NCBI GenBank assembly: GCA_031262525.1
Contig: JAISHM010000006.1
Coordinates: forward strand, 7,880 to 71,879
Direction of reading: 5' to 3'
DNA from: Rickettsiales bacterium
GTDB taxonomy: Bacteria > Pseudomonadota > Alphaproteobacteria > Rs-D84
DNA length: 64,000 nucleotides
The notes below the pieces were generated by a model, which saw only the letters and a program-made list of their open reading frames with translations, made no database searches and was not told the DNA's origin. Every line of letters begins with the position of its first letter. The stretch's first letter is position 1. Below are positions 1 through 32,836 of this stretch, in pieces. Made by a program: the position numbers and the translations under genes.

Positions 1-407
1 CGAATCAGTTTGTAATTTCGGGTCTGGCCGCAGATGTAGAAAAAGCGATGGAAATCGCAAAGTCGCGCGGCGCGCGGCGCGCGATGCAGTTGCCGTTATC
101 CGCGCCAGTTCATTGTTCGTTGCAATTACCGACTGCGGATATAATGGCGGATGCGTTATCAAATATAGAAATAAAAGCGCCAACCCACCCGCTTATATCA
201 AACAAAACAACCTTGCCGATGTCTGAACCTGATGAAATTAGGGACGCGTTGGTATATCAAATTACACATGGTGTGCGTTGGCGTGAATCTGTTACAAATA
301 TGCCGGACTTTGGAATTACAAAAACCATAGAGGTTGGACCAGGTTCCGCATTGACAGGAATGGTTCAACGTATCACAGATAAAATAACAGCAGAAAAAAT
401 AGGATAA
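1..407 (+). CDS. fabD: malonyl CoA-ACP transacylase, 3' part (5' end outside window)
   Basis: Frame 3 is open from the window edge (NQFVISGLAADVEKAMEIAK...). The C-terminal peptide reads ...VYQITHGVRWRESV.... The stop lies 4 nt before fabG, the usual fabD-fabG order. Confidence 0.8.
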   Translation, partial: NQFVISGLAADVEKAMEIAKSRGARRAMQLPLSAPVHCSLQLPTADIMADALSNIEIKAPTHPLISNKTTLPMSEPDEIRDALVYQITHGVRWRESVTNMPDFGITKTIEVGPGSALTGMVQRITDKITAEKIG

Positions 408-410
408 AAT

Positions 411-1148
411 ATGAATAATTTAACAGGGAAAATTGTTTTAATAACAGGTGCGACGGGTGGAATTGGTGCGGCGATTGCGCGGCGATTTGCAGACGCTGGC
501 GCAGCTGTTGTTTTAACAGGTCGTGATGAAAAAAAACTGGCGAAAATGTGTGATGGGTTGGGTGAATGTAGTGCAATGATACCGGCGGATTTATCTGATA
601 GCGCGGCAGCGAATAAACTAGTTGCTGATGTTTTGGAAAAATATGGACGCATAGATATTTTGGTAAATAATGCCGGTATAACCCGTGATACTTTGATGAT
701 GCGTATGACCGATGACCAATTTGATGAGGTTTTGCGTGTAAATTTACGCAGTACATTTTTGCTGACACGCGCTGTTTTAATACCGATGATGAAAAATCGT
801 TTTGGTCGGATTATAAATATGGCATCTGTGGTTGCCTTTATAGGGAACGCAGGTCAGGCAAATTATGCGGCAAGCAAGGGCGCAATCGTTGCAATGACAA
901 AATCAATCGCGGCCGAGGTTGCATCTCGCGATATAACCGCGAATTGTATTGCCCCTGGGTTTATTGAAACGCCAATGACAGATGGTTTGTCAGATGATGT
1001 AAAGACCCTGTATCAAAAACAAATTCCGATGGGGCGTTTTGGTTCGCCGGACGATGTGGCGGGCGCGGCGTTATTTTTGGCGTCTGATGACGCATCATAT
1101 ATCACAGGTCAAACAATCCATGTAAATGGCGGAATGGCAAGGTTTTAA
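411..1148 (+). CDS. fabG: 3-oxoacyl-ACP reductase
   Basis: 245 aa classical SDR with TGATGGIG nucleotide-binding motif, NNAG, and catalytic Y-x3-K (NYAASKGA). It directly follows fabD. Confidence 0.9.
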   Translation: MNNLTGKIVLITGATGGIGAAIARRFADAGAAVVLTGRDEKKLAKMCDGLGECSAMIPADLSDSAAANKLVADVLEKYGRIDILVNNAGITRDTLMMRMTDDQFDEVLRVNLRSTFLLTRAVLIPMMKNRFGRIINMASVVAFIGNAGQANYAASKGAIVAMTKSIAAEVASRDITANCIAPGFIETPMTDGLSDDVKTLYQKQIPMGRFGSPDDVAGAALFLASDDASYITGQTIHVNGGMARF

Positions 1149-1151
1149 TAA

Positions 1152-1252
1152 TTGGTGATGGTGGTTAGTGGTTAGTTATGGTGATTTATAAATAAATTGT
1201 CCTTTATAATGGACAAATTTACCATCCACCAGCACTAACCACTAGCCACTAA

Positions 1253-1260
<8 letters not shown>
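1152..1260. repeat. long palindromic repeat element, copy A (G/T-rich left arm, core TTGTCCTTTATAATGGACAA at 1197-1216, C/A-rich right arm)
   Basis: The left arm TTGGTGATGGTGGTTAGTGGTTAGTTATGGTG is the imperfect reverse complement of the right arm CACCAGCACTAACCACTAGCCACTAATTACACCA. The same core and arms recur at 26.0-26.9 kb. It lies between convergent fabG and ORF 1253-1831 and is probably a bidirectional terminator hairpin. Confidence 0.85.
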
Positions 1261-4279
<3,019 letters not shown>

Positions 4280-5824: not shown

Positions 5825-5865
5825 TCTTGATTTTTAATAAATGCCTGATATAATCGGGCTTGTTT

Positions 5866-5903
5866 GGCGGGTTAGCTCAGTGGTAGAGCAGAGGAATCAT
5901 AAT
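5866..5903 (+). pseudogene. orphan 5' half of a split tRNA(CAT) gene (acceptor 5' strand, D-arm, anticodon stem 5' strand and loop)
   Basis: GGCGGGT-TA-GCTC-AGTGGTA-GAGC-A-GAGGA-ATCATAA ends in the anticodon loop. It pairs perfectly with the 3' half at 8658-8702 (acceptor GGCGGGT/ACCCGCT, anticodon stem GAGGA/TCCTT). Confidence 0.8.
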
Positions 5904-6101
5904 TATCAGAGGGTAAGTGTGATTTATCTGGATACAGCCCTGAACACCCCAGGTTTCGGCAGAAATACCGAAATAACAAGTGTGGATAAAACTGGATAGA
6001 ATTGGATTGAAATCTGGGGAAATATAAGTTATATTTTACACAGATGACACACAGGATTACACACAGAGTAAGATAAGGTAAAAATTGGTAAAAGTTTTTT
6101 T

Positions 6102-6176
6102 GGCGGGATAGCTCAGTGGTAGAGCAAGGCAATCATAATGCTTGGGTCGGGGGTTCAAATCCCTCTCCCGCTACCA
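6102..6176 (+). tRNA. tRNA with CAT anticodon (elongator Met or lysidine-type Ile2; not initiator)
   Basis: 75 nt cloverleaf by hand: GGCGGGA/TCCCGCT acceptor (G1-U72), GCTC/GAGC D-stem, AGGCA/TGCTT anticodon stem, loop ATCATAA, GGGGG/CCCTC T-stem, TTCAAAT T-loop, encoded ACCA. It lacks the three G-C pairs and 1-72 mismatch of initiator tRNA. Confidence 0.85.
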
Positions 6177-6182
6177 AAATTC

Positions 6183-6207
6183 ACAGGGGATTTATCCCCT
6201 GTTTTTT
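6183..6207 (+). terminator. rho-independent terminator after tRNA(CAT)
   Basis: ACAGGGGA-TTTA-TCCCCTGT hairpin followed by TTTTTT. Confidence 0.7.
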
Positions 6208-6227
6208 ATTGAAAATATACACCTTGT

Positions 6228-6440
6228 TTAACTCTTTGCCATTTGGATTAGAAATTCAGCACAGGCGGTGTCATATGTTTTGTATGTCAGTGCCAATACC
6301 AAACCGCTATCACATTCTGCATATGCCTGTGCCAGTTGTTCTGGCAGGTGTCGTAATATACGATTATTTGATTTCCGAATGGCTTTTTTGATTCTCTCTA
6401 TCATTCTGTTTTCAAATTCAATTCTTTCTTGCTCAGTCAT
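6228..6440 (-). CDS. hypothetical small protein (island)
   Basis: 70 aa ORF overlapping the next island ORF by 8 nt. No motif recognised. Confidence 0.35.
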   Translation of the reverse strand: MTEQERIEFENRMIERIKKAIRKSNNRILRHLPEQLAQAYAECDSGLVLALTYKTYDTACAEFLIQMAKS

Positions 6441-6930
6441 TATTTTCTCCTTTGTTTTTTGTGATTTTTGTTAATTCTTCGACAAATTCTTCACTAAACT
6501 CGTCAAATTCTGCGGTTAAAATATCTTCTATTTTTTGCGGGTCTTTTATATTGACCAGGCGCGGCGCAATATTAAACGGGATTCGCATCATTTTATCGCG
6601 ATGAATCCGTGCCACTGCAAAAGCATCGCTTTCAACCTGTGCGGCAGAAATCAATTTTCCGCTCTTCTCTTCATATTCCAATTTTTTCAAAGCCGCCTCA
6701 TAAGCCATACGCATTGCGCGGCTTTTACGATAAGAATCGTTTGATGTGTCCGAGACCTTTTTGTCTTCATTGTATGTCGTGTTTGTATTTTTACACCATT
6801 GAACATCTGCAATCGCGGGGTCAATTTTGCCATCATGGGTTGTGCTGATGCGTCCAGTTTCAATGGCTTTGCGTACAGCAGCGTCAGAAACGCCAATGTA
6901 TTTCGCATATGCTCTGATTGACATCGCCAT
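6433..6930 (-). CDS. phage-type HTH DNA-binding protein (Nu1/terminase-small-subunit-like N-terminus)
   Basis: 165 aa. The N-terminus SIRAYAKYIGVSDAAVRKAIETGRIS..DGKIDPAIADVQW is the HTH pattern I associate with small phage DNA-recognition proteins. Confidence 0.35.
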   Translation of the reverse strand: MAMSIRAYAKYIGVSDAAVRKAIETGRISTTHDGKIDPAIADVQWCKNTNTTYNEDKKVSDTSNDSYRKSRAMRMAYEAALKKLEYEEKSGKLISAAQVESDAFAVARIHRDKMMRIPFNIAPRLVNIKDPQKIEDILTAEFDEFSEEFVEELTKITKNKGENND

Positions 6931-7136
6931 TGTTTTTTTACCCTTGTTTTGTTCCCAAAAGTTCGCACTAAGTTCGCGCCCAGGTTCGCACCGTTATCCC
7001 AAATTTCTGCGGTGTTGAACCGCAAAGTGCGAACTGCGAACCGTTTTTTATTCTCTGTCGCTAGCGAGGTCTCGCGGTCGCCTTTACCCTCGTGGGAAAA
7101 TGTCCCCACAGTACCTTTTTGTTTTTTATTTTAATT

Positions 7137-7694
7137 TCAGTGTTTACTTTGCTCTTCCACCCATTTAATAATTGCGGCGAATGTGAATTGCTTTCCCATG
7201 CATTTTTCACGCAATGCCCGTTCAGTTTTTAATAACACTGGTTCTGAATACATTGAAAGTATTTGCGCCAGCGATGCATCCCGCCGCAGTAATTCCGCAA
7301 ATGAAAAATCATGCGCGATTTCGTATTTTTTGTCTTTGTCGGGGCTGAAATTATTCGCCAATTTTTTAATCAAAGCAGATACATTGTTACTGCCATTGTT
7401 ATTGTTTATGGAATTGCTATTGCTTACTGCTATTGCCGGAGTCAAGTCATCAGATTGCGAGCCAATCTGTTCAGATTGTTTTGCCCATCTGTTCGCACGT
7501 GCAACAGATAGTCCTTTCTTTCTGTTCTGATATGCGGCTTGGTCGCGGTCAATCTGTTTACGCATAAACCGCCATGCACCGACATCACAGTCTTTGTCTG
7601 GATAATGCAGCAGGCAATCAAAGATTTGCAATTTTTCCGCGTCCGACAAAGGCGCAATTATATCAATCAAATCAGTTTCCAGCAGGACTCGCAT
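7137..7694 (-). CDS. hypothetical phage-associated protein
   Basis: 185 aa ORF in the island with an Asn/Ser-rich linker. No catalytic motif recognised. Confidence 0.35.
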   Translation of the reverse strand: MRVLLETDLIDIIAPLSDAEKLQIFDCLLHYPDKDCDVGAWRFMRKQIDRDQAAYQNRKKGLSVARANRWAKQSEQIGSQSDDLTPAIAVSNSNSINNNNGSNNVSALIKKLANNFSPDKDKKYEIAHDFSFAELLRRDASLAQILSMYSEPVLLKTERALREKCMGKQFTFAAIIKWVEEQSKH

Positions 7695-7710
7695 AGCAAC
7701 CCCCCTTTGG

Positions 7711-7941
7711 TTATTGGCGGTTCGCCGTTGCCCTGAACGCAGATAGTTCGTCGATAATTTTATTTGCGTCGGCTGGAGTCATTCGTTCGCATTTCTGCCC
7801 TGTGCCTTGATAAGTCTGCGAAGCCTCGTAATCCGCAATGTCTGATTTGCGATAAACCACGCGACCAACACGTTTTATAAATTTGGGACCAACGCCCAGC
7901 GAACGCCATTTTTGCAAAGTATTGCGTTTACCTGTGAATAC
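7711..7941 (-). pseudogene. AlpA/excisionase-family HTH gene, 5'-truncated
   Basis: ...TLQKWRSLGVGPKFIKRVGRVVYRKSDIADYE matches the recognition-helix/wing part of AlpA-type regulators. The frame is open upstream only to a stop at about 7942-7944, has no ATG, and the first HTH helix is missing. Confidence 0.5.
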
Positions 7942-7945
7942 TTAC

Positions 7946-8458
7946 GCAAAATACAAAGATTTTTGCAATGCAACATTTATGACATTTGAATTGCCAGCAT
8001 ACAGCAAGCCGAATAAATTAAATAAAAGGTTCGTTAAACGTAAAAAGATTTATTTTACCGATACTAATTTCTTGTGCTATATCAAGCGTCGCGACATAGT
8101 GGATTTATATAATAATGACAAATCGGTTATGGGACATATATTTGAAAACTTTGTTGCAACGGAAATTATTAAAAATACAAGTGTTTTACCAGATAAATAT
8201 TATGTATCGCATTTTAATCCTGTACGTGGTGAGGGCAACGAGACCGACTTTATTATTGAAAAAGACAATGGCGAAACAATCGCAATCGAAGTTAAATTGG
8301 ATTCCACGTTAAACCCGAAAGATTTTAAAAATATGGAATTATGCCGTGATACAATTGGCGACAAATTCAAACGTGGTATAGTCCTTTATACTGGTGAAAA
8401 CATTGTCCCATTTGGTGATAAATTATGGGCAGTGCCTGTAAATTATTTGTATGAGTAA
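7946..8458 (+). pseudogene. C-terminal fragment of a DUF4143-type AAA ATPase
   Basis: ...KRFVKRKKIYFTDTNF...GHIFENFVATEIIK...ETDFIIEKDNGETIAIEVK matches the C-terminal DUF4143 region. The N-terminal AAA domain of roughly 200 aa is absent, and the fragment abuts the truncated AlpA-like gene. Confidence 0.55.
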
Positions 8459-8657
8459 AGATTTGCTTGAATATTGGGTTTTCGTGTGTTATATTTCATT
8501 CAACAAACAAGTAGTGGGTTTGGGGCGAAAGCCCAGACAAACAGCGGTTGTGATACAAAGCGACAAGCGCGCAAATGACGCGCAAAGGCTCGTAAAGGTA
8601 TTGTCGGGTGGGTAAAAACGGCGGATTTCCGCGTTAAATTATTGTCTGCTGACTGGT

Positions 8658-8702
8658 ATCATAATCCTTTGGTCGGGGGTCCGAATCCCTCACCCGCTAC
8701 CA
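8658..8702 (+). pseudogene. orphan 3' half of the split tRNA(CAT) gene
   Basis: ATCATAA-TCCTT-TGGTC-GGGGG-TCCGAAT-CCCTC-ACCCGCT-ACCA complements the 5' half at 5866-5903. The T-loop reads TCC instead of the near-invariant TTC (U55), consistent with decay. Confidence 0.8.
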
Positions 8703-8714
8703 AAATTGTAAATT

Positions 8715-8788
8715 GCCCGCATAGTATAATGGTAGAACACGTCCTTGGTAAGGACGAGACGGCAGTCCGATTCTGCCTGCGGGCACCA
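8715..8788 (+). tRNA. tRNA-Thr (GGT)
   Basis: GCCCGCA/TGCGGGC acceptor, CGTCC/GGACG anticodon stem, loop TTGGTAA, GGCAG/CTGCC T-stem, encoded ACCA. The D-stem has one mismatch and the variable loop is 4 nt. Confidence 0.75.
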
Positions 8789-8896
8789 GAATAATATATT
8801 CATCGGCATTGGCATCGGCTCGTGTATTTTTATACACTTCGCCACTGACCAACACCAATAACTATATCATTTTATCACCCGCAGCGGGCACCAGAA
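8779..8896 (+). repeat. 13-bp direct repeat of the tRNA-Thr 3' end flanking a ~92 bp hairpin-like insert
   Basis: GCGGGCACCAGAA occurs at 8779-8791 (tRNA 3' end) and again at 8884-8896. The interior contains GTGTATTTTTATACAC with G/T-rich and C/A-rich flanks (CATTGGCATCGGC ... GCCACTGACCAACACCAAT). Confidence 0.65.
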
Positions 8897-8973
8897 CATC
8901 GCATATGCGGCGAATTTTTTTCCTTTGTTTATTTTTTAAATAAGACTATGATATGAAAAAGGGAGAAAAAAAA

Positions 8974-11769
8974 ATGAAAAAAATATTGCCCGTATCTTTG
9001 TTTGTATCTGTTTTTTCAATATCAGCATTCGCCGATATAATCACTTCAAATCAGTATATTAGTAATGGCGAAACAAAAAACTATACTGACCCAATTGCAG
9101 AAAATATGACCGATACTTATCCAGGGGTTGTATTTTATAACGAGGGAGAATTAAATATAACAAATGGGGAATTTAACACCAACTCTACAACTGGAAATAA
9201 TGGTTTTGGTGGTGTAATTATGAATTTAAATACGATTGGTTTGAAAAGCACTGTGTTCGATAAAAATACAGCAGAAAAAAGTGGCGGGGCAATTTATAAT
9301 GTCGGTTCTGCAAATATGGACGAAACACATTTTTCTGAAAATACAGGTGCATGGGGTGGCGCAATTTATAATGATGGCGGCGAGTTGGAGATTACAAATA
9401 GTTTATTCAGTAAAAATATAGGAACAACCGCAGGTGGCGCAATTTCCAGTTCAAATACAATAAATATAGAAAAAAGCACATTTTCTGAAAACGAAAGCGC
9501 ATGGGGTGGCGCGATTTATTCCACTGGCGATATAAATATAAAAGAAAGTTTGTTTGTGGATAATGATAGTGGTGCGAATTATGGTGGTGCAATATATATC
9601 CAGGGCGGTCAGACAGATATTTCAGATTCAAATTTTTCTGGTAATACCGCCAGTGGTGGCGGCGCAATCAGCGCAAGTACCGCGTCTGGTATAACTATTT
9701 CCATCACGGATAGTTTGTTTGAAAATAATTCTGTAACCGTTCAAGGTGGCGGTGCAATCAGTAATTATTCTTGGGGAGATGGTGTAATTGTTGATAATAC
9801 TATTTTCAGAAATAACCAAACAACAGGGACCACTCTGATAGATGGCACAGCTGCCGAAGGTGGTGGCGCAATGTTTTTTGGTTCTGATTCCGCAACATCG
9901 CTGACGAATAGTCAATTTATAAACAATACTTCTGTTATGAATGGTGGTGCGATTTCAATGCGAGCCAACAGGTTGGGGGACCAATCTTCTGCAAAACTTG
10001 ATATTAGTGATACAACTTTCAACACAAATGTTGCATCTGGAAACGGCGGCGCGATTTTTAATACTTTCTATGGCAGTGCCGCGGATGCTGATTTTGTAAA
10101 AATAAATAACTCTATTTTTTCAAACAATACTGCCGTAAATGGTGGCGCGGTTTATAATGATGGGACTGGTGACAAGATTGGTGGTATCGCGGCAATAAAG
10201 TTTGTTGGCGCAACATTTACAGATAATATCGCAACAACAAACGGCGGCGCGATTTATAACGCTGGTGGCGATATTTTGTTTTCTGGTGGCGCGACTTTTT
10301 CTGGGAACAAAGCAAATGGGGTGTTAAATGATATTTATAACACAGGTACTTTGACCTTTGATGGGGGAATTGTTGCGCTGGATGGTGGAATTGTTGGGGC
10401 TGGCGAAGTTGAATTTACAAACGGAACTTCGTTAAAAGCCAGTTTAACAGGTACAAATCCAATTATAACAACCAGTAAATTGTCAGGAACAATAAATCTG
10501 GTTGTAACCAATGTGAATGGCGGGCAAATTGTGTTTGATGCAGGTGAAGACACCCTGGTAATCAATAATAATAATTCTTTGTATGATATCACGGGTGTGT
10601 CAGGAACCTGGACAATCGCAAAGAGAAATACAGACGAGATATTATCAAATATCGGCGCATCAAATGAAGATGCAGAAATGGTTGCCGGGATAATGGCGGG
10701 GGATTCTAATAATGATAGTTTTAACTCTCTGCAAAATGAGATTACCGCACTGATGCAAAATGATTATACAAAAGCGACAGCAATTAAAATGTTGCGTGAA
10801 ATGGCGCCGACCAAGGCACCAACCATAGTAAGTAATTCGGTTCAGACGACCGGCGCTGTGATGAAATCTGTGGGGACGCGATTTAGTGGCGGTGGAATTA
10901 GCAGCGGAATGTCATCTGGTGATTATGTTTATGGTGATACAGCAGTATGGGCCCAGGGTTTGTATAACAAATCAAAATTGACGGGCGCAAATGGATACAA
11001 GTCAGATTCTTATGGTATATCGGCTGGGTTGGAAAGTGAATTGACCAGGGGGGTAAAATTGGGTTTGGGGTATGCATTTACTGAAACAACTATTGAACCA
11101 TTTGCGAATTCAACTGATATCAACTCAAACACTTTTGTATTATACGGGGAATATAAACCATTACATTTATACGGATTCCAAGATGCTGGAAATTGGTATG
11201 TGAATTCTATATTGTCCTATACAAACAGCGTATATGACAATGATAACAAGGTTGGATTAAATCATATTATGGCGAATTATGAAACGGATACATTGGCGGC
11301 GCAAATGATGACTGGTTATGATATTCATGCGTTTGATTTGAATTCCAATAAACTTTTTACAATGACGCCAGAGATTGGATTGCGTTATATGAATATCAAA
11401 CAATATGATTATACGAATAGTATCGGGAGTTTTTACAAAGGTAAAAAATACGATATCTTGACAGGGTTGGCAGGTGTGAAATTGGCAACAGACTTTTATC
11501 TGTCTGATAACTTTATGTTGCGACCAGAATTGCGAATTGGGCTTACATACGATATGTATAATGCGGATGGTTCGTCGGTTATGCGGCTTGCGAATGGTTC
11601 AACGATTGTTACAAATGGCGGTGCGCTGGATAGGTTAGCAACCGAGATTGGATTTGGCTTGACGGCAAGTTTGTCTGGAAATGTTGATTTCAGTTTAATT
11701 TACGAAGGGCAATTCCGTGATGGTTATTCTGATAATACCGGGATAGCAATGTTAAAAATATATTTCTAG
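8974..11769 (+). CDS. autotransporter outer membrane protein with Pmp-type (FxxN/GGAI) repeats
   Basis: Signal peptide MKKILPVSLFVSVFSISAFA. About 12 tandem F-x-x-N...GGA[IV] units (e.g. FSENTGAWGGAIYNDG). The C-terminal beta-barrel region of about 280 aa ends in aromatic ...AMLKIYF. GGGAG lies 8 nt upstream of the ATG at 8974; the alternative ATG at 8953 is less likely. Confidence 0.8.
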   Translation: MKKILPVSLFVSVFSISAFADIITSNQYISNGETKNYTDPIAENMTDTYPGVVFYNEGELNITNGEFNTNSTTGNNGFGGVIMNLNTIGLKSTVFDKNTAEKSGGAIYNVGSANMDETHFSENTGAWGGAIYNDGGELEITNSLFSKNIGTTAGGAISSSNTINIEKSTFSENESAWGGAIYSTGDINIKESLFVDNDSGANYGGAIYIQGGQTDISDSNFSGNTASGGGAISASTASGITISITDSLFENNSVTVQGGGAISNYSWGDGVIVDNTIFRNNQTTGTTLIDGTAAEGGGAMFFGSDSATSLTNSQFINNTSVMNGGAISMRANRLGDQSSAKLDISDTTFNTNVASGNGGAIFNTFYGSAADADFVKINNSIFSNNTAVNGGAVYNDGTGDKIGGIAAIKFVGATFTDNIATTNGGAIYNAGGDILFSGGATFSGNKANGVLNDIYNTGTLTFDGGIVALDGGIVGAGEVEFTNGTSLKASLTGTNPIITTSKLSGTINLVVTNVNGGQIVFDAGEDTLVINNNNSLYDITGVSGTWTIAKRNTDEILSNIGASNEDAEMVAGIMAGDSNNDSFNSLQNEITALMQNDYTKATAIKMLREMAPTKAPTIVSNSVQTTGAVMKSVGTRFSGGGISSGMSSGDYVYGDTAVWAQGLYNKSKLTGANGYKSDSYGISAGLESELTRGVKLGLGYAFTETTIEPFANSTDINSNTFVLYGEYKPLHLYGFQDAGNWYVNSILSYTNSVYDNDNKVGLNHIMANYETDTLAAQMMTGYDIHAFDLNSNKLFTMTPEIGLRYMNIKQYDYTNSIGSFYKGKKYDILTGLAGVKLATDFYLSDNFMLRPELRIGLTYDMYNADGSSVMRLANGSTIVTNGGALDRLATEIGFGLTASLSGNVDFSLIYEGQFRDGYSDNTGIAMLKIYF

Positions 11770-32759: not shown

Positions 32760-32836
32760 TGGTGGGGTTGCAGGGATTCGAACCCTGGACCCAATGATTA
32801 AAAGTCATTTGCTCTAGCCAACTGAGCTACAACCCC
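32760..32836 (-). tRNA. tRNA-Lys (TTT)
   Basis: GGGGTTG/CAACCCC acceptor, GCTC/GAGC D-stem, AATGA/TCATT anticodon stem, loop CTTTTAA, CAGGG/CCCTG T-stem, TTCGAAT, encoded ACCA. Confidence 0.9.

Follow-up and report, generated by a model that had tools for sequence, protein, structure and literature searches.

The 64,000-nt stretch of contig JAISHM010000006.1 from a Rickettsiales bacterium metagenome-assembled genome (MAG; GCA_031262525.1), referred to here as the window, harbors a host tRNA(CAU) gene that is interrupted in its anticodon loop by an island of about 2.75 kb, and this island carries a complete tRNA(CAU) gene of its own. We propose, with a probability of about 0.8, that a phage-derived element split the host tRNA(CAU) gene by site-specific insertion, that the tRNA of the element substitutes for the broken one, and that the element decayed afterwards. 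The sequences directly show the split itself, the direct repeat flanking the island, the uninterrupted allele of the relatives, an inner tRNA of foreign identity, the phage-type genes of the island and the lack of an integrase.

The two halves of the broken gene lie at opposite ends of the island. The orphan 5′ half, GGCGGGTTAGCTCAGTGGTAGAGCAGAGGAATCATAAT (5866-5903), comprises the acceptor strand, the D arm, the 5′ anticodon stem and the anticodon loop, and the orphan 3′ half, ATCATAATCCTTTGGTCGGGGGTCCGAATCCCTCACCCGCTACCA (8658-8702), comprises the loop, the 3′ anticodon stem, the variable loop, the T arm, the acceptor strand and CCA. The 8-bp direct repeat ATCATAAT, which is the 7-nt anticodon loop plus one base, is duplicated at both island ends (5896-5903 and 8658-8665), with 2754 bp separating the two copies. 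Beyond this 8-bp core, the adjoining DNA is non-tRNA on both island sides. In the window as it stands, ARAGORN identified three tRNAs, namely tRNA(cat) at 6102-6176, tRNA-Thr(ggt) at 8715-8788 and tRNA-Lys(ttt) at 32760-32836, and neither half was recognized as a tRNA by ARAGORN or by Rfam, the latter even at E <= 1. When 5866-5903 is joined in silico with 8666-8702, a 75-nt cloverleaf results, which ARAGORN identifies as tRNA-Met(cat), and an intact copy of exactly this sequence in the relative L004 reaches 65.5 bits in Rfam. Five related alphaproteobacterial MAGs (L004, L005, L007, L010, and L011) have uninterrupted genes that match the join at 75/75 positions, so the orphan halves are free of decay, with 0 differences in 75 nt from the intact orthologues. 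Since the join scores as a tRNA and the orthologous locus of relatives holds the gene without interruption, the two halves are one tRNA(CAU) gene split by inserted DNA. A preliminary description of the window, made from its letters alone, had reported the two tRNA halves, the repeat around 2754 bp and the cloverleaf on joining, and had suggested tRNA calling on both the window and the join. All of these points were borne out when the sequences were re-read and called, the halves corresponding to nt 1-38 and nt 31-75 of the intact orthologues.

The same description had taken the TCC of the T-loop in the orphan 3′ half as a sign of decay, which the relatives contradict: TCCGAAT is also found in the five intact orthologues, and TCCGAT in the neighboring intact tRNA-Thr. 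By this comparison, the TCC T-loop is a native trait of the clade. The host-type tRNA-Met T-loop reads TCCGAAT in the window halves and in L004, L005, L007, L010, and L011, and that of tRNA-Thr(GGT) reads TCCGATT in the window and TCCGAT in L009 and L011. Host-type tRNA-Met and tRNA-Thr(GGT) thereby have C at position 55, and the tRNA-Lys of the window has the usual TTCGAAT. Position 55 is nearly always U (pseudouridine 55) in tRNAs.

The uninterrupted allele was traced with a degenerate 75-nt pattern covering both tRNA versions, which was scanned against one genome per GTDB species. Exactly one match was obtained in each of 12 MAGs (L002-L013), which suggests that this is a single-copy gene in the clade. 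In L004, L005, L007, and L011, the 75/75-identical gene stands immediately behind ung and is followed by tRNA-Thr(GGT), an arrangement also found in the window. Variant alleles occupy the same ung–tRNA-Met–tRNA-Thr position in L002 (where the contig ends before tRNA-Thr), L006, and L009, and L010 has the two tRNA genes in inverted orientation with respect to ung. In L002, L004, L005, L006, L007, L009, and L011, tblastn revealed gyrB (~71-81% amino acid identity), orf193 (~50%), and ung (~55%) upstream of the tRNA. The order gyrB–orf193–ung–tRNA-Met, followed by tRNA-Thr where the contig reaches, is conserved in the relatives, and tRNA-Met precedes tRNA-Thr(GGT) in nine related loci, as in the window. 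A promoter-like block, CTTGATTTT...TATAAT, lies upstream of the intact genes of the relatives and persists likewise upstream of the orphan 5′ half (5827-5854). The preliminary description had proposed looking for an uninterrupted copy in related genomes; one is present at the orthologous locus, with 75/75 identity in five MAGs.

The island-borne gene was likewise described correctly as a second, intact tRNA(CAT) with its own terminator: ARAGORN recognizes it, Rfam gives it 66.2 bits, and a strong terminator, a hairpin with a T run, follows it. It differs from the split gene at nine positions. Two pairs are compensated, 7/66 (T:A in the split gene, A:T in the island) and 30/40 (G:C and C:G, respectively), as the preliminary description had noted for the stems; the changes at 27 and 28 keep their pairs, and those at 44, 55, and 57 are unpaired. 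Overall, the anticodon stem reads AGGCA/TGCTT in the island tRNA versus GAGGA/TCCTT in the split gene. Because the 5′ and 3′ halves of the island tRNA co-vary with each other (A7:T66 and C30:G40) and not with the host halves, the gene is no chimera of host and element. It is 75/75 identical to the tRNA of Rickettsiales bacterium Hs463_bin75 (L003), which is native there, as it stands behind the usual promoter block of the clade, and mosaics of both tRNA versions occur in L002, L006, L008, L009, L012, and L013. Judged by these alignments, the island tRNA is an allele circulating in the same bacterial family.

The setting of the island tRNA is compatible with its use by the host. It is oriented like the broken gene and begins 198 bp inward from attL. 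The surviving host promoter is 250 bp upstream, a scan detected no terminator between the two, and read-through from the host promoter into the island tRNA is possible. A promoter-like site of the island itself (6007-6035, 10/12) lies 66 bp upstream of the gene. We infer that the island tRNA is expressed and that the host needs it. The island tRNA and the split gene share the anticodon CAT, G1, C3-G70, G4-C69, G5-C68, and C11-G24. According to Silva et al. 2006 (PMC1635315), A11-T24 marks fMet, C3-G70 is usual in Met, and C4-G69 and C5-G68 are frequent in Ile(CAT). By these discriminators, neither copy is an initiator, and elongator Met fits both better than Ile2. The two copies should be isofunctional because all discriminator positions are common to both. 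Phage-database matches to the island tRNA that are labeled 'tRNA-Ile' have the anticodon GAT and so do not decide between Met and Ile2.

Table 1 Features of the split tRNA(CAU) locus and its island (window coordinates).
Feature	Position	Strand	Details
Host promoter-like site of the tRNA-Met gene	5827-5854	+	TTGATT, 16-nt spacer, TG-TATAAT; scan 10/12, extended -10
Orphan 5′ half of host tRNA(CAU)	5866-5903	+	Equals nt 1-38 of the intact genes of L004, L005, L007, L010, L011; last 8 nt are the attL core ATCATAAT
Left arm	5904-6101	+	Non-coding, AT-rich; four TGGAT motifs (5929, 5983, 5993, 6003); promoter-like site 6007-6035
Complete island tRNA(CAU)	6102-6176	+	ARAGORN; Rfam 66.2 bits; encoded CCA, canonical TTCAAAT T-loop
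Intrinsic terminator-like hairpin and T run	6183-6208	+	Hairpin 6183-6202; 8 pairs, 5 G-C; bidirectional, also follows the convergent 70-aa open reading frame
70-aa open reading frame	6228-6440	-	Homologous to the 69-aa frame preceding xis-int in L014
Small-terminase-like (TerS-like) gene, N-terminal helix-turn-helix	6433-6930	-	PHROG phrog_57, E = 3.8e-29
DUF6291 gene, phage early-region protein	7137-7694	-	Pfam PF19808, E = 1.8e-7
HTH_17 (AlpA/Xis-like) fragment	7711-7923	-	Lacks ~20 N-terminal residues; weak phrog_2528 match, C-terminal part only
DUF4143 ATPase fragment, C-terminal domain only	7916-8458	+	Pfam PF13635 profile 38-159 of 160, no AAA domain
Right arm	8459-8657	+	Non-coding; island ends 16/60 identical, not inverted repeats
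Orphan 3′ half of host tRNA(CAU)	8658-8702	+	Equals nt 31-75 of the intact genes of the same five relatives; first 8 nt (8658-8665) are the attR core ATCATAAT
Host tRNA-Thr(GGT)	8715-8788	+	ARAGORN and Rfam (61 bits); marks the original locus, conserved downstream neighbor of tRNA-Met

The remaining content of the island is phage-type (Table 1). The preliminary description had seen phage-like helix-turn-helix (HTH) genes and two truncated genes in the interval, and the two truncated genes are the HTH_17 and DUF4143 fragments. In its present state the element has the TerS-like, DUF6291, and HTH_17 genes, with no structural genes, no repressor, and no integrase. The TerS protein is annotated in NCBI as a hypothetical protein (LBL75_00655) of a Rickettsiales bacterium MAG. 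All protein genes of the island are on the minus strand except the DUF4143 fragment, and the HTH_17 and DUF4143 fragments meet head to head at ~7916-7923. These head-to-head truncations imply that one deletion took both 5′ ends and whatever lay between them, and this deletion may have removed the integrase. The Xis protein of the related contig L014 (see below) matches the HTH_17 fragment over its residues 21-57 (7923-7816, tblastn E = 8e-6). The 70-aa open reading frame has no family match, and a protein database search with it returned only itself. Among the matches listed for the DUF4143 fragment, the longest homologues have 287-311 amino acids; their contexts (L050-L052) are unrelated, and they were discarded as a clue to the element. 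The G+C content of the island is 40.6%, versus 40.2% for the window.

The left arm of the island shows a repeated motif. TGGAT occurs four times where 0.49 occurrences are expected (Poisson P ~0.0016, post hoc), and three of the copies are in 10-bp phase; the four motifs are candidate arm-type integrase sites. No matching motif of the TGGAT type is present in the right arm, and the left arm shows no similarity to the tRNA upstream regions of any relative.

The closest relative of the island genes is L014, a 3.8-kb JGI contig with the order (DUF6291)–terS–69-aa frame–HTH_17–integrase. Its integrase has Arm-DNA-bind_3 and Phage_integrase domains. L014 aligns to 7538-6370 of the window at 89% nucleotide identity, and the TerS genes of the two are 89% identical. 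The nucleotide homology ends inside the small open reading frame, and amino acid similarity appears to run to its stop when the translations are compared by eye. At the position corresponding to xis-int of L014, the window has the tRNA with its terminator and the left arm. The claim that the integrase had been lost agrees with this comparison, as the 64-kb window has no integrase and L014 has the xis-int pair. On the basis of these alignments, the island is a remnant of mosaic make-up, left by either a prophage or a satellite with terS. Its integration module differs from that of L014 and had no relative in the collections searched. In L014 itself (1-3834, JGI 3300042599), a perfect palindrome, TTTGTATC-AGTATAAT-GATACAAA, lies ~20 bp past the integrase stop; repeats of the motif TTATAACAGAAxTGTTATA and a HipB/HipA-like pair come after it. 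L014 looks like a terS-carrying phage satellite with its attP.

More distant homologues of the TerS protein, at 45-50% identity, are encoded in the prophages L015-L022, immediately before GpA-type large terminase and portal genes. These prophages of Alphaproteobacteria MAGs are P2/Mu-like, and the longer contigs (L015-L021) include capsid and baseplate genes; xis-int is seen in L015, L019, and L021, whose contigs extend far enough upstream. An HTH_17–DUF6291 early block occurs in L015-L019, with DUF6291 between HTH_17 and terS and with weak to faint family matches. L015-L022 are candidate helper phages for elements of the L014 type. A search of viral contigs with the DUF6291 protein of the island gave no relative. 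No tRNA genes were found in the TerS-related contigs L014-L031, L033, and L034, and one was found in L032 (TerS 31% identical); this near-absence indicates that the tRNA is not a trait of the TerS lineage.

Collectively, these observations suggest the following course of events. The target would have been the anticodon loop of the host tRNA(CAU), probably elongator tRNA-Met, between ung and tRNA-Thr(GGU). As no integrase is present, the class of the recombinase has to be deduced indirectly. The catalyst was most likely a tyrosine integrase, which is favored because the insertion is exactly in the anticodon loop, the loop is duplicated, inverted repeats and a transposase are lacking, the genes are phage-type, and the TGGAT motifs are phased. 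The attP of the element would share with attB only the 8-bp core ATCATAAT as the overlap region, so that attL would consist of the host 5′ half and one element arm, and attR of the other element arm and the host 3′ half. Because only 8 bp are shared, neither junction would rebuild the tRNA and the tRNA(CAU) of the element would substitute, taking over decoding with AUG read by a gene that matches the native gene of another species of the clade. Decay would have left the terS-like gene, the DUF6291 gene, the 70-aa open reading frame, and the two truncated genes, and with the integrase gone the arrangement would be frozen. Site-specific integration at the anticodon loop without regeneration of the host tRNA, as the preliminary description had put it, fits both the junctions, neither of which is called as a tRNA, and the relatives, whose gene is uninterrupted.

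Several points weigh against this insertion-and-replacement history. Neither the island nor the 64-kb window yielded an integrase gene or fragment when three integrases of related elements were used as tblastn queries and the island open reading frames were screened with Pfam. The tRNA inventory covers the 64-kb window, which bears on the complementation step. Independent assembly, in the form of the Logan contig L001 (SRR14710920) with gyrB–ung–5′ half–arm–island tRNA–terS, supports the attL side and not attR. Look-ups of exact protein sequences gave no record for Ung (taken from the first ATG), TerS (as the 165-aa frame of the window and as the 163-aa database form), the DUF6291 protein, the DUF4143 fragment, or the autotransporter downstream of the tRNA pair. 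The tRNA-bearing left module is without a known relative, the nucleotide homology to L014 stopping inside the 70-aa open reading frame. The searches revealed neither an intact copy of the element nor a free attP. An attP reconstructed from the right arm, the core, and the left arm had 0 matches in viral contigs, as did the TGGAT repeat block of the left arm and the degenerate pattern for the tRNA. The only metagenome match to the attP, L049, was rejected as chance, with no flank similarity and an unrelated open reading frame.

Other explanations have to be considered alongside. The island tRNA could be cargo, with another functional elongator tRNA-Met elsewhere in the genome, so that the split cost nothing and nothing was complemented. 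Our view of the genome is limited to 64 kb, and tRNA genes on phages and islands are often there for other reasons (discussed in PMC10865867). We nevertheless consider this explanation unlikely, as the degenerate pattern occurs once per genome in 12 relatives, and the island tRNA shares its anticodon and acceptor-stem discriminators with the split gene and lies co-oriented with it, just behind the host promoter. A different history would begin with a classic integration, in which the tRNA was rebuilt from a 3′ half supplied by attP, and continue with tandem integration, partial deletion, or gene conversion. Later deletions are indeed evident at the locus from the two truncated genes, and classic 3′-end scars at tRNA-Met in L003, L004, and L013 indicate that classic integrases use this gene. 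It is nonetheless very unlikely here, since the orphan 5′ half runs straight into non-tRNA DNA past the 8-bp core, the halves of the inner tRNA co-vary mutually and are not chimeric, and the interval holds no extra partial tRNA copies.

Among insertion sequence families, 8 bp is a common target-duplication length, and the repeat might therefore be the target-site duplication of a DDE transposase, the transposon having landed in the anticodon loop by chance. This appears highly improbable given that the ends lack terminal inverted repeats (16/60 identity), that no transposase is found among the open reading frames of the interval, that the gene content is phage-type, and that the anticodon loop is a standard crossover site of tyrosine integrases, with 8-17-bp cores documented (PMC10865867). 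The source is a MAG, and tRNA genes are conserved repeats prone to wrong contig joins, so foreign island DNA might also have been spliced into the tRNA gene during assembly. We give this the least credence of all: the independent Logan assembly SRR14710920 holds gyrB to terS through attL on one contig, and a tRNA-mediated chimera would join in long identical stretches rather than leave clean halves with 8-bp loop copies.

Site-specific insertion followed by replacement, as preferred here, would also allow a more specific and rather doubtful interpretation of the element as a capsid-less phage satellite, with terS and no structural genes like L014, that used 'tRNA hostage-taking' as an anti-loss device. 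If this were true, the loss of the integrase would have left the host permanently dependent on a foreign essential tRNA gene, and mobile elements would be a driving force by which essential tRNA genes are replaced with orthologues in host-associated Alphaproteobacteria that have small genomes. On this interpretation, the anticodon-stem differences between the tRNA of the element (AGGCA/TGCTT) and its target (GAGGA/TCCTT) might also keep the former from serving as an attachment site.

Further traces of integration were noticed around the tRNA-Met gene of the relatives. The last 19 nt of tRNA-Met are repeated directly 80-175 nt downstream of the intact gene in L003 (2215-2233, 19/19), L004 (932-950, 18/19), and L013 (3568-3586, 17/19). 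These repeats are classic 3′-end integration scars, and scars in three relatives make the tRNA-Met gene a recurrent integration target in the clade, at a sublocation different from that of the window event. In L011, positions 2203-2219 (+) resemble the core together with the 3′ anticodon stem (ATCATAATCCTGTGGAC) with a 15/17 match, 1.9 kb from tRNA-Met on the opposite strand and between orf193 and gyrB; the match is probably due to chance, with ~0.02 matches expected (a rough, post hoc estimate). In the window, GCGGGCACCAGAA (13 nt, the 3′ end of tRNA-Thr(GGT) plus 3 nt) stands at 8779-8791 and again at 8884-8896, 105 bp downstream. This repeat looks like a classic 3′-end att scar of a second, nearly fully deleted island at tRNA-Thr(GGT). 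Directly downstream of the tRNA pair is a 938-aa autotransporter (8953-11769) with Chlamydia-type polymorphic membrane protein (PMP) repeats, whose start is probably the second ATG (8974), behind the ribosome-binding site AAGGGAG.

The titles of the 12 MAGs name Alphaproteobacteria or Rickettsiales, except that five are titled 'uncultured Muribaculaceae' (L002, L004, L005, L009, and L012). In L002, L004, L005, and L009, ung adjoins the tRNA gene, three of these four also have gyrB, and all four align with the window at ~65-75% nucleotide identity, like the MAGs titled Alphaproteobacteria or Rickettsiales. L012 shares with the window only the tRNA and the promoter block. From these alignments, the Muribaculaceae titles look wrong. 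The isolate names of the related MAGs hint at the termite gut as their habitat.

As a natural record of an integration strategy described only recently, the locus is unusually clean: both halves are letter-perfect, the uninterrupted allele is present in five relatives, and the replacement tRNA leads back to an allele native to another species in the clade. It extends the tRNA-replacement strategy to an uncultured, Rickettsiales-labeled alphaproteobacterium and illustrates its likely end state, in which the integrase is lost and an essential tRNA gene is in effect swapped for a foreign one. For tRNA gene phylogeny, this means that horizontal replacement may be hidden inside apparently conserved loci, and island-finding software that presumes a regenerated tRNA at one island end would miss such a case.

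Among known systems, the split tRNAs of Nanoarchaeum and other archaea resemble the locus in that the halves are encoded apart and the split is in the anticodon loop region. They differ in that each of the halves described here retains the entire loop and the two are an insertion scar in a bacterium. To our knowledge, no trans-splicing of tRNA halves exists in bacteria. A functional split tRNA of the Nanoarchaeum type was considered and rejected, with the loop duplicated and the trailer-leader complementarity marginal (duplex energy z ~-2.2). Classic integration of prophages and genomic islands into tRNA genes (sublocation scheme of Williams 2002; Islander database, PMC4383910) shares with the island the crossover in the anticodon loop and the displaced host 3′ fragment at the far end. 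In the classic elements, however, attP carries the 3′ part of the tRNA and the gene is regenerated at one junction, whereas the island has only 8 bp of identity and left an orphan 5′ half. The preliminary description had noted this departure from classic 3′-end-duplicating integration; the arrangement does differ, but it is not new and matches published cases (PMC10865867 and PMC11476347).

The closest parallel is 'tRNA-dependent lysogeny', shown experimentally in the actinobacteriophages Fionnbharth, LeBron, Gaia, OneUp, and Mollymur (Guerrero-Bustamante & Hatfull 2024, PMC10865867). In these phages, a tyrosine integrase uses an attB in a tRNA gene with cores of 8-17 bp (8 bp in Gaia), no tRNA is left at attL, and the cognate phage tRNA is required for lysogeny. 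Arm-type sites flank the core in the phages examined for them, the targets include tRNA-Ile2-CAT, and an earlier Lj965 case is cited (PMC10865867). The island is alike in having its attB in a tRNA gene, an 8-bp core as in Gaia without a rebuilt tRNA, and a cognate tRNA on the element; as with some of the actinobacteriophages, a tRNA with a CAT anticodon was targeted. Unlike these live temperate phages, it is a 2.75-kb remnant without integrase, repressor, or structural genes, known from sequence alone in an uncultured alphaproteobacterium. By this comparison, the island is a fossil footprint of integration of the tRNA-dependent-lysogeny type and not an active member.

A second precedent comes from a bioinformatic study of Sinorhizobium meliloti, in which prophage-related sequences inactivate tRNA-Leu(UAG) and carry a replacement (PMC11476347). 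The introduced tRNA-Leu(UAG) is closest to genes of other Alphaproteobacteria and not to the host's own (PMC11476347). Both cases have an alphaproteobacterial host, an inactivated host tRNA, and an element-borne gene for the same isoacceptor that resembles that of another bacterium. They differ in the tRNA, the element family, and the host lineage, and in our case the uninterrupted allele is available from five relatives and the element has decayed. In conclusion, the mechanism is already known, and this locus is a further case of a published strategy and no new mechanism.

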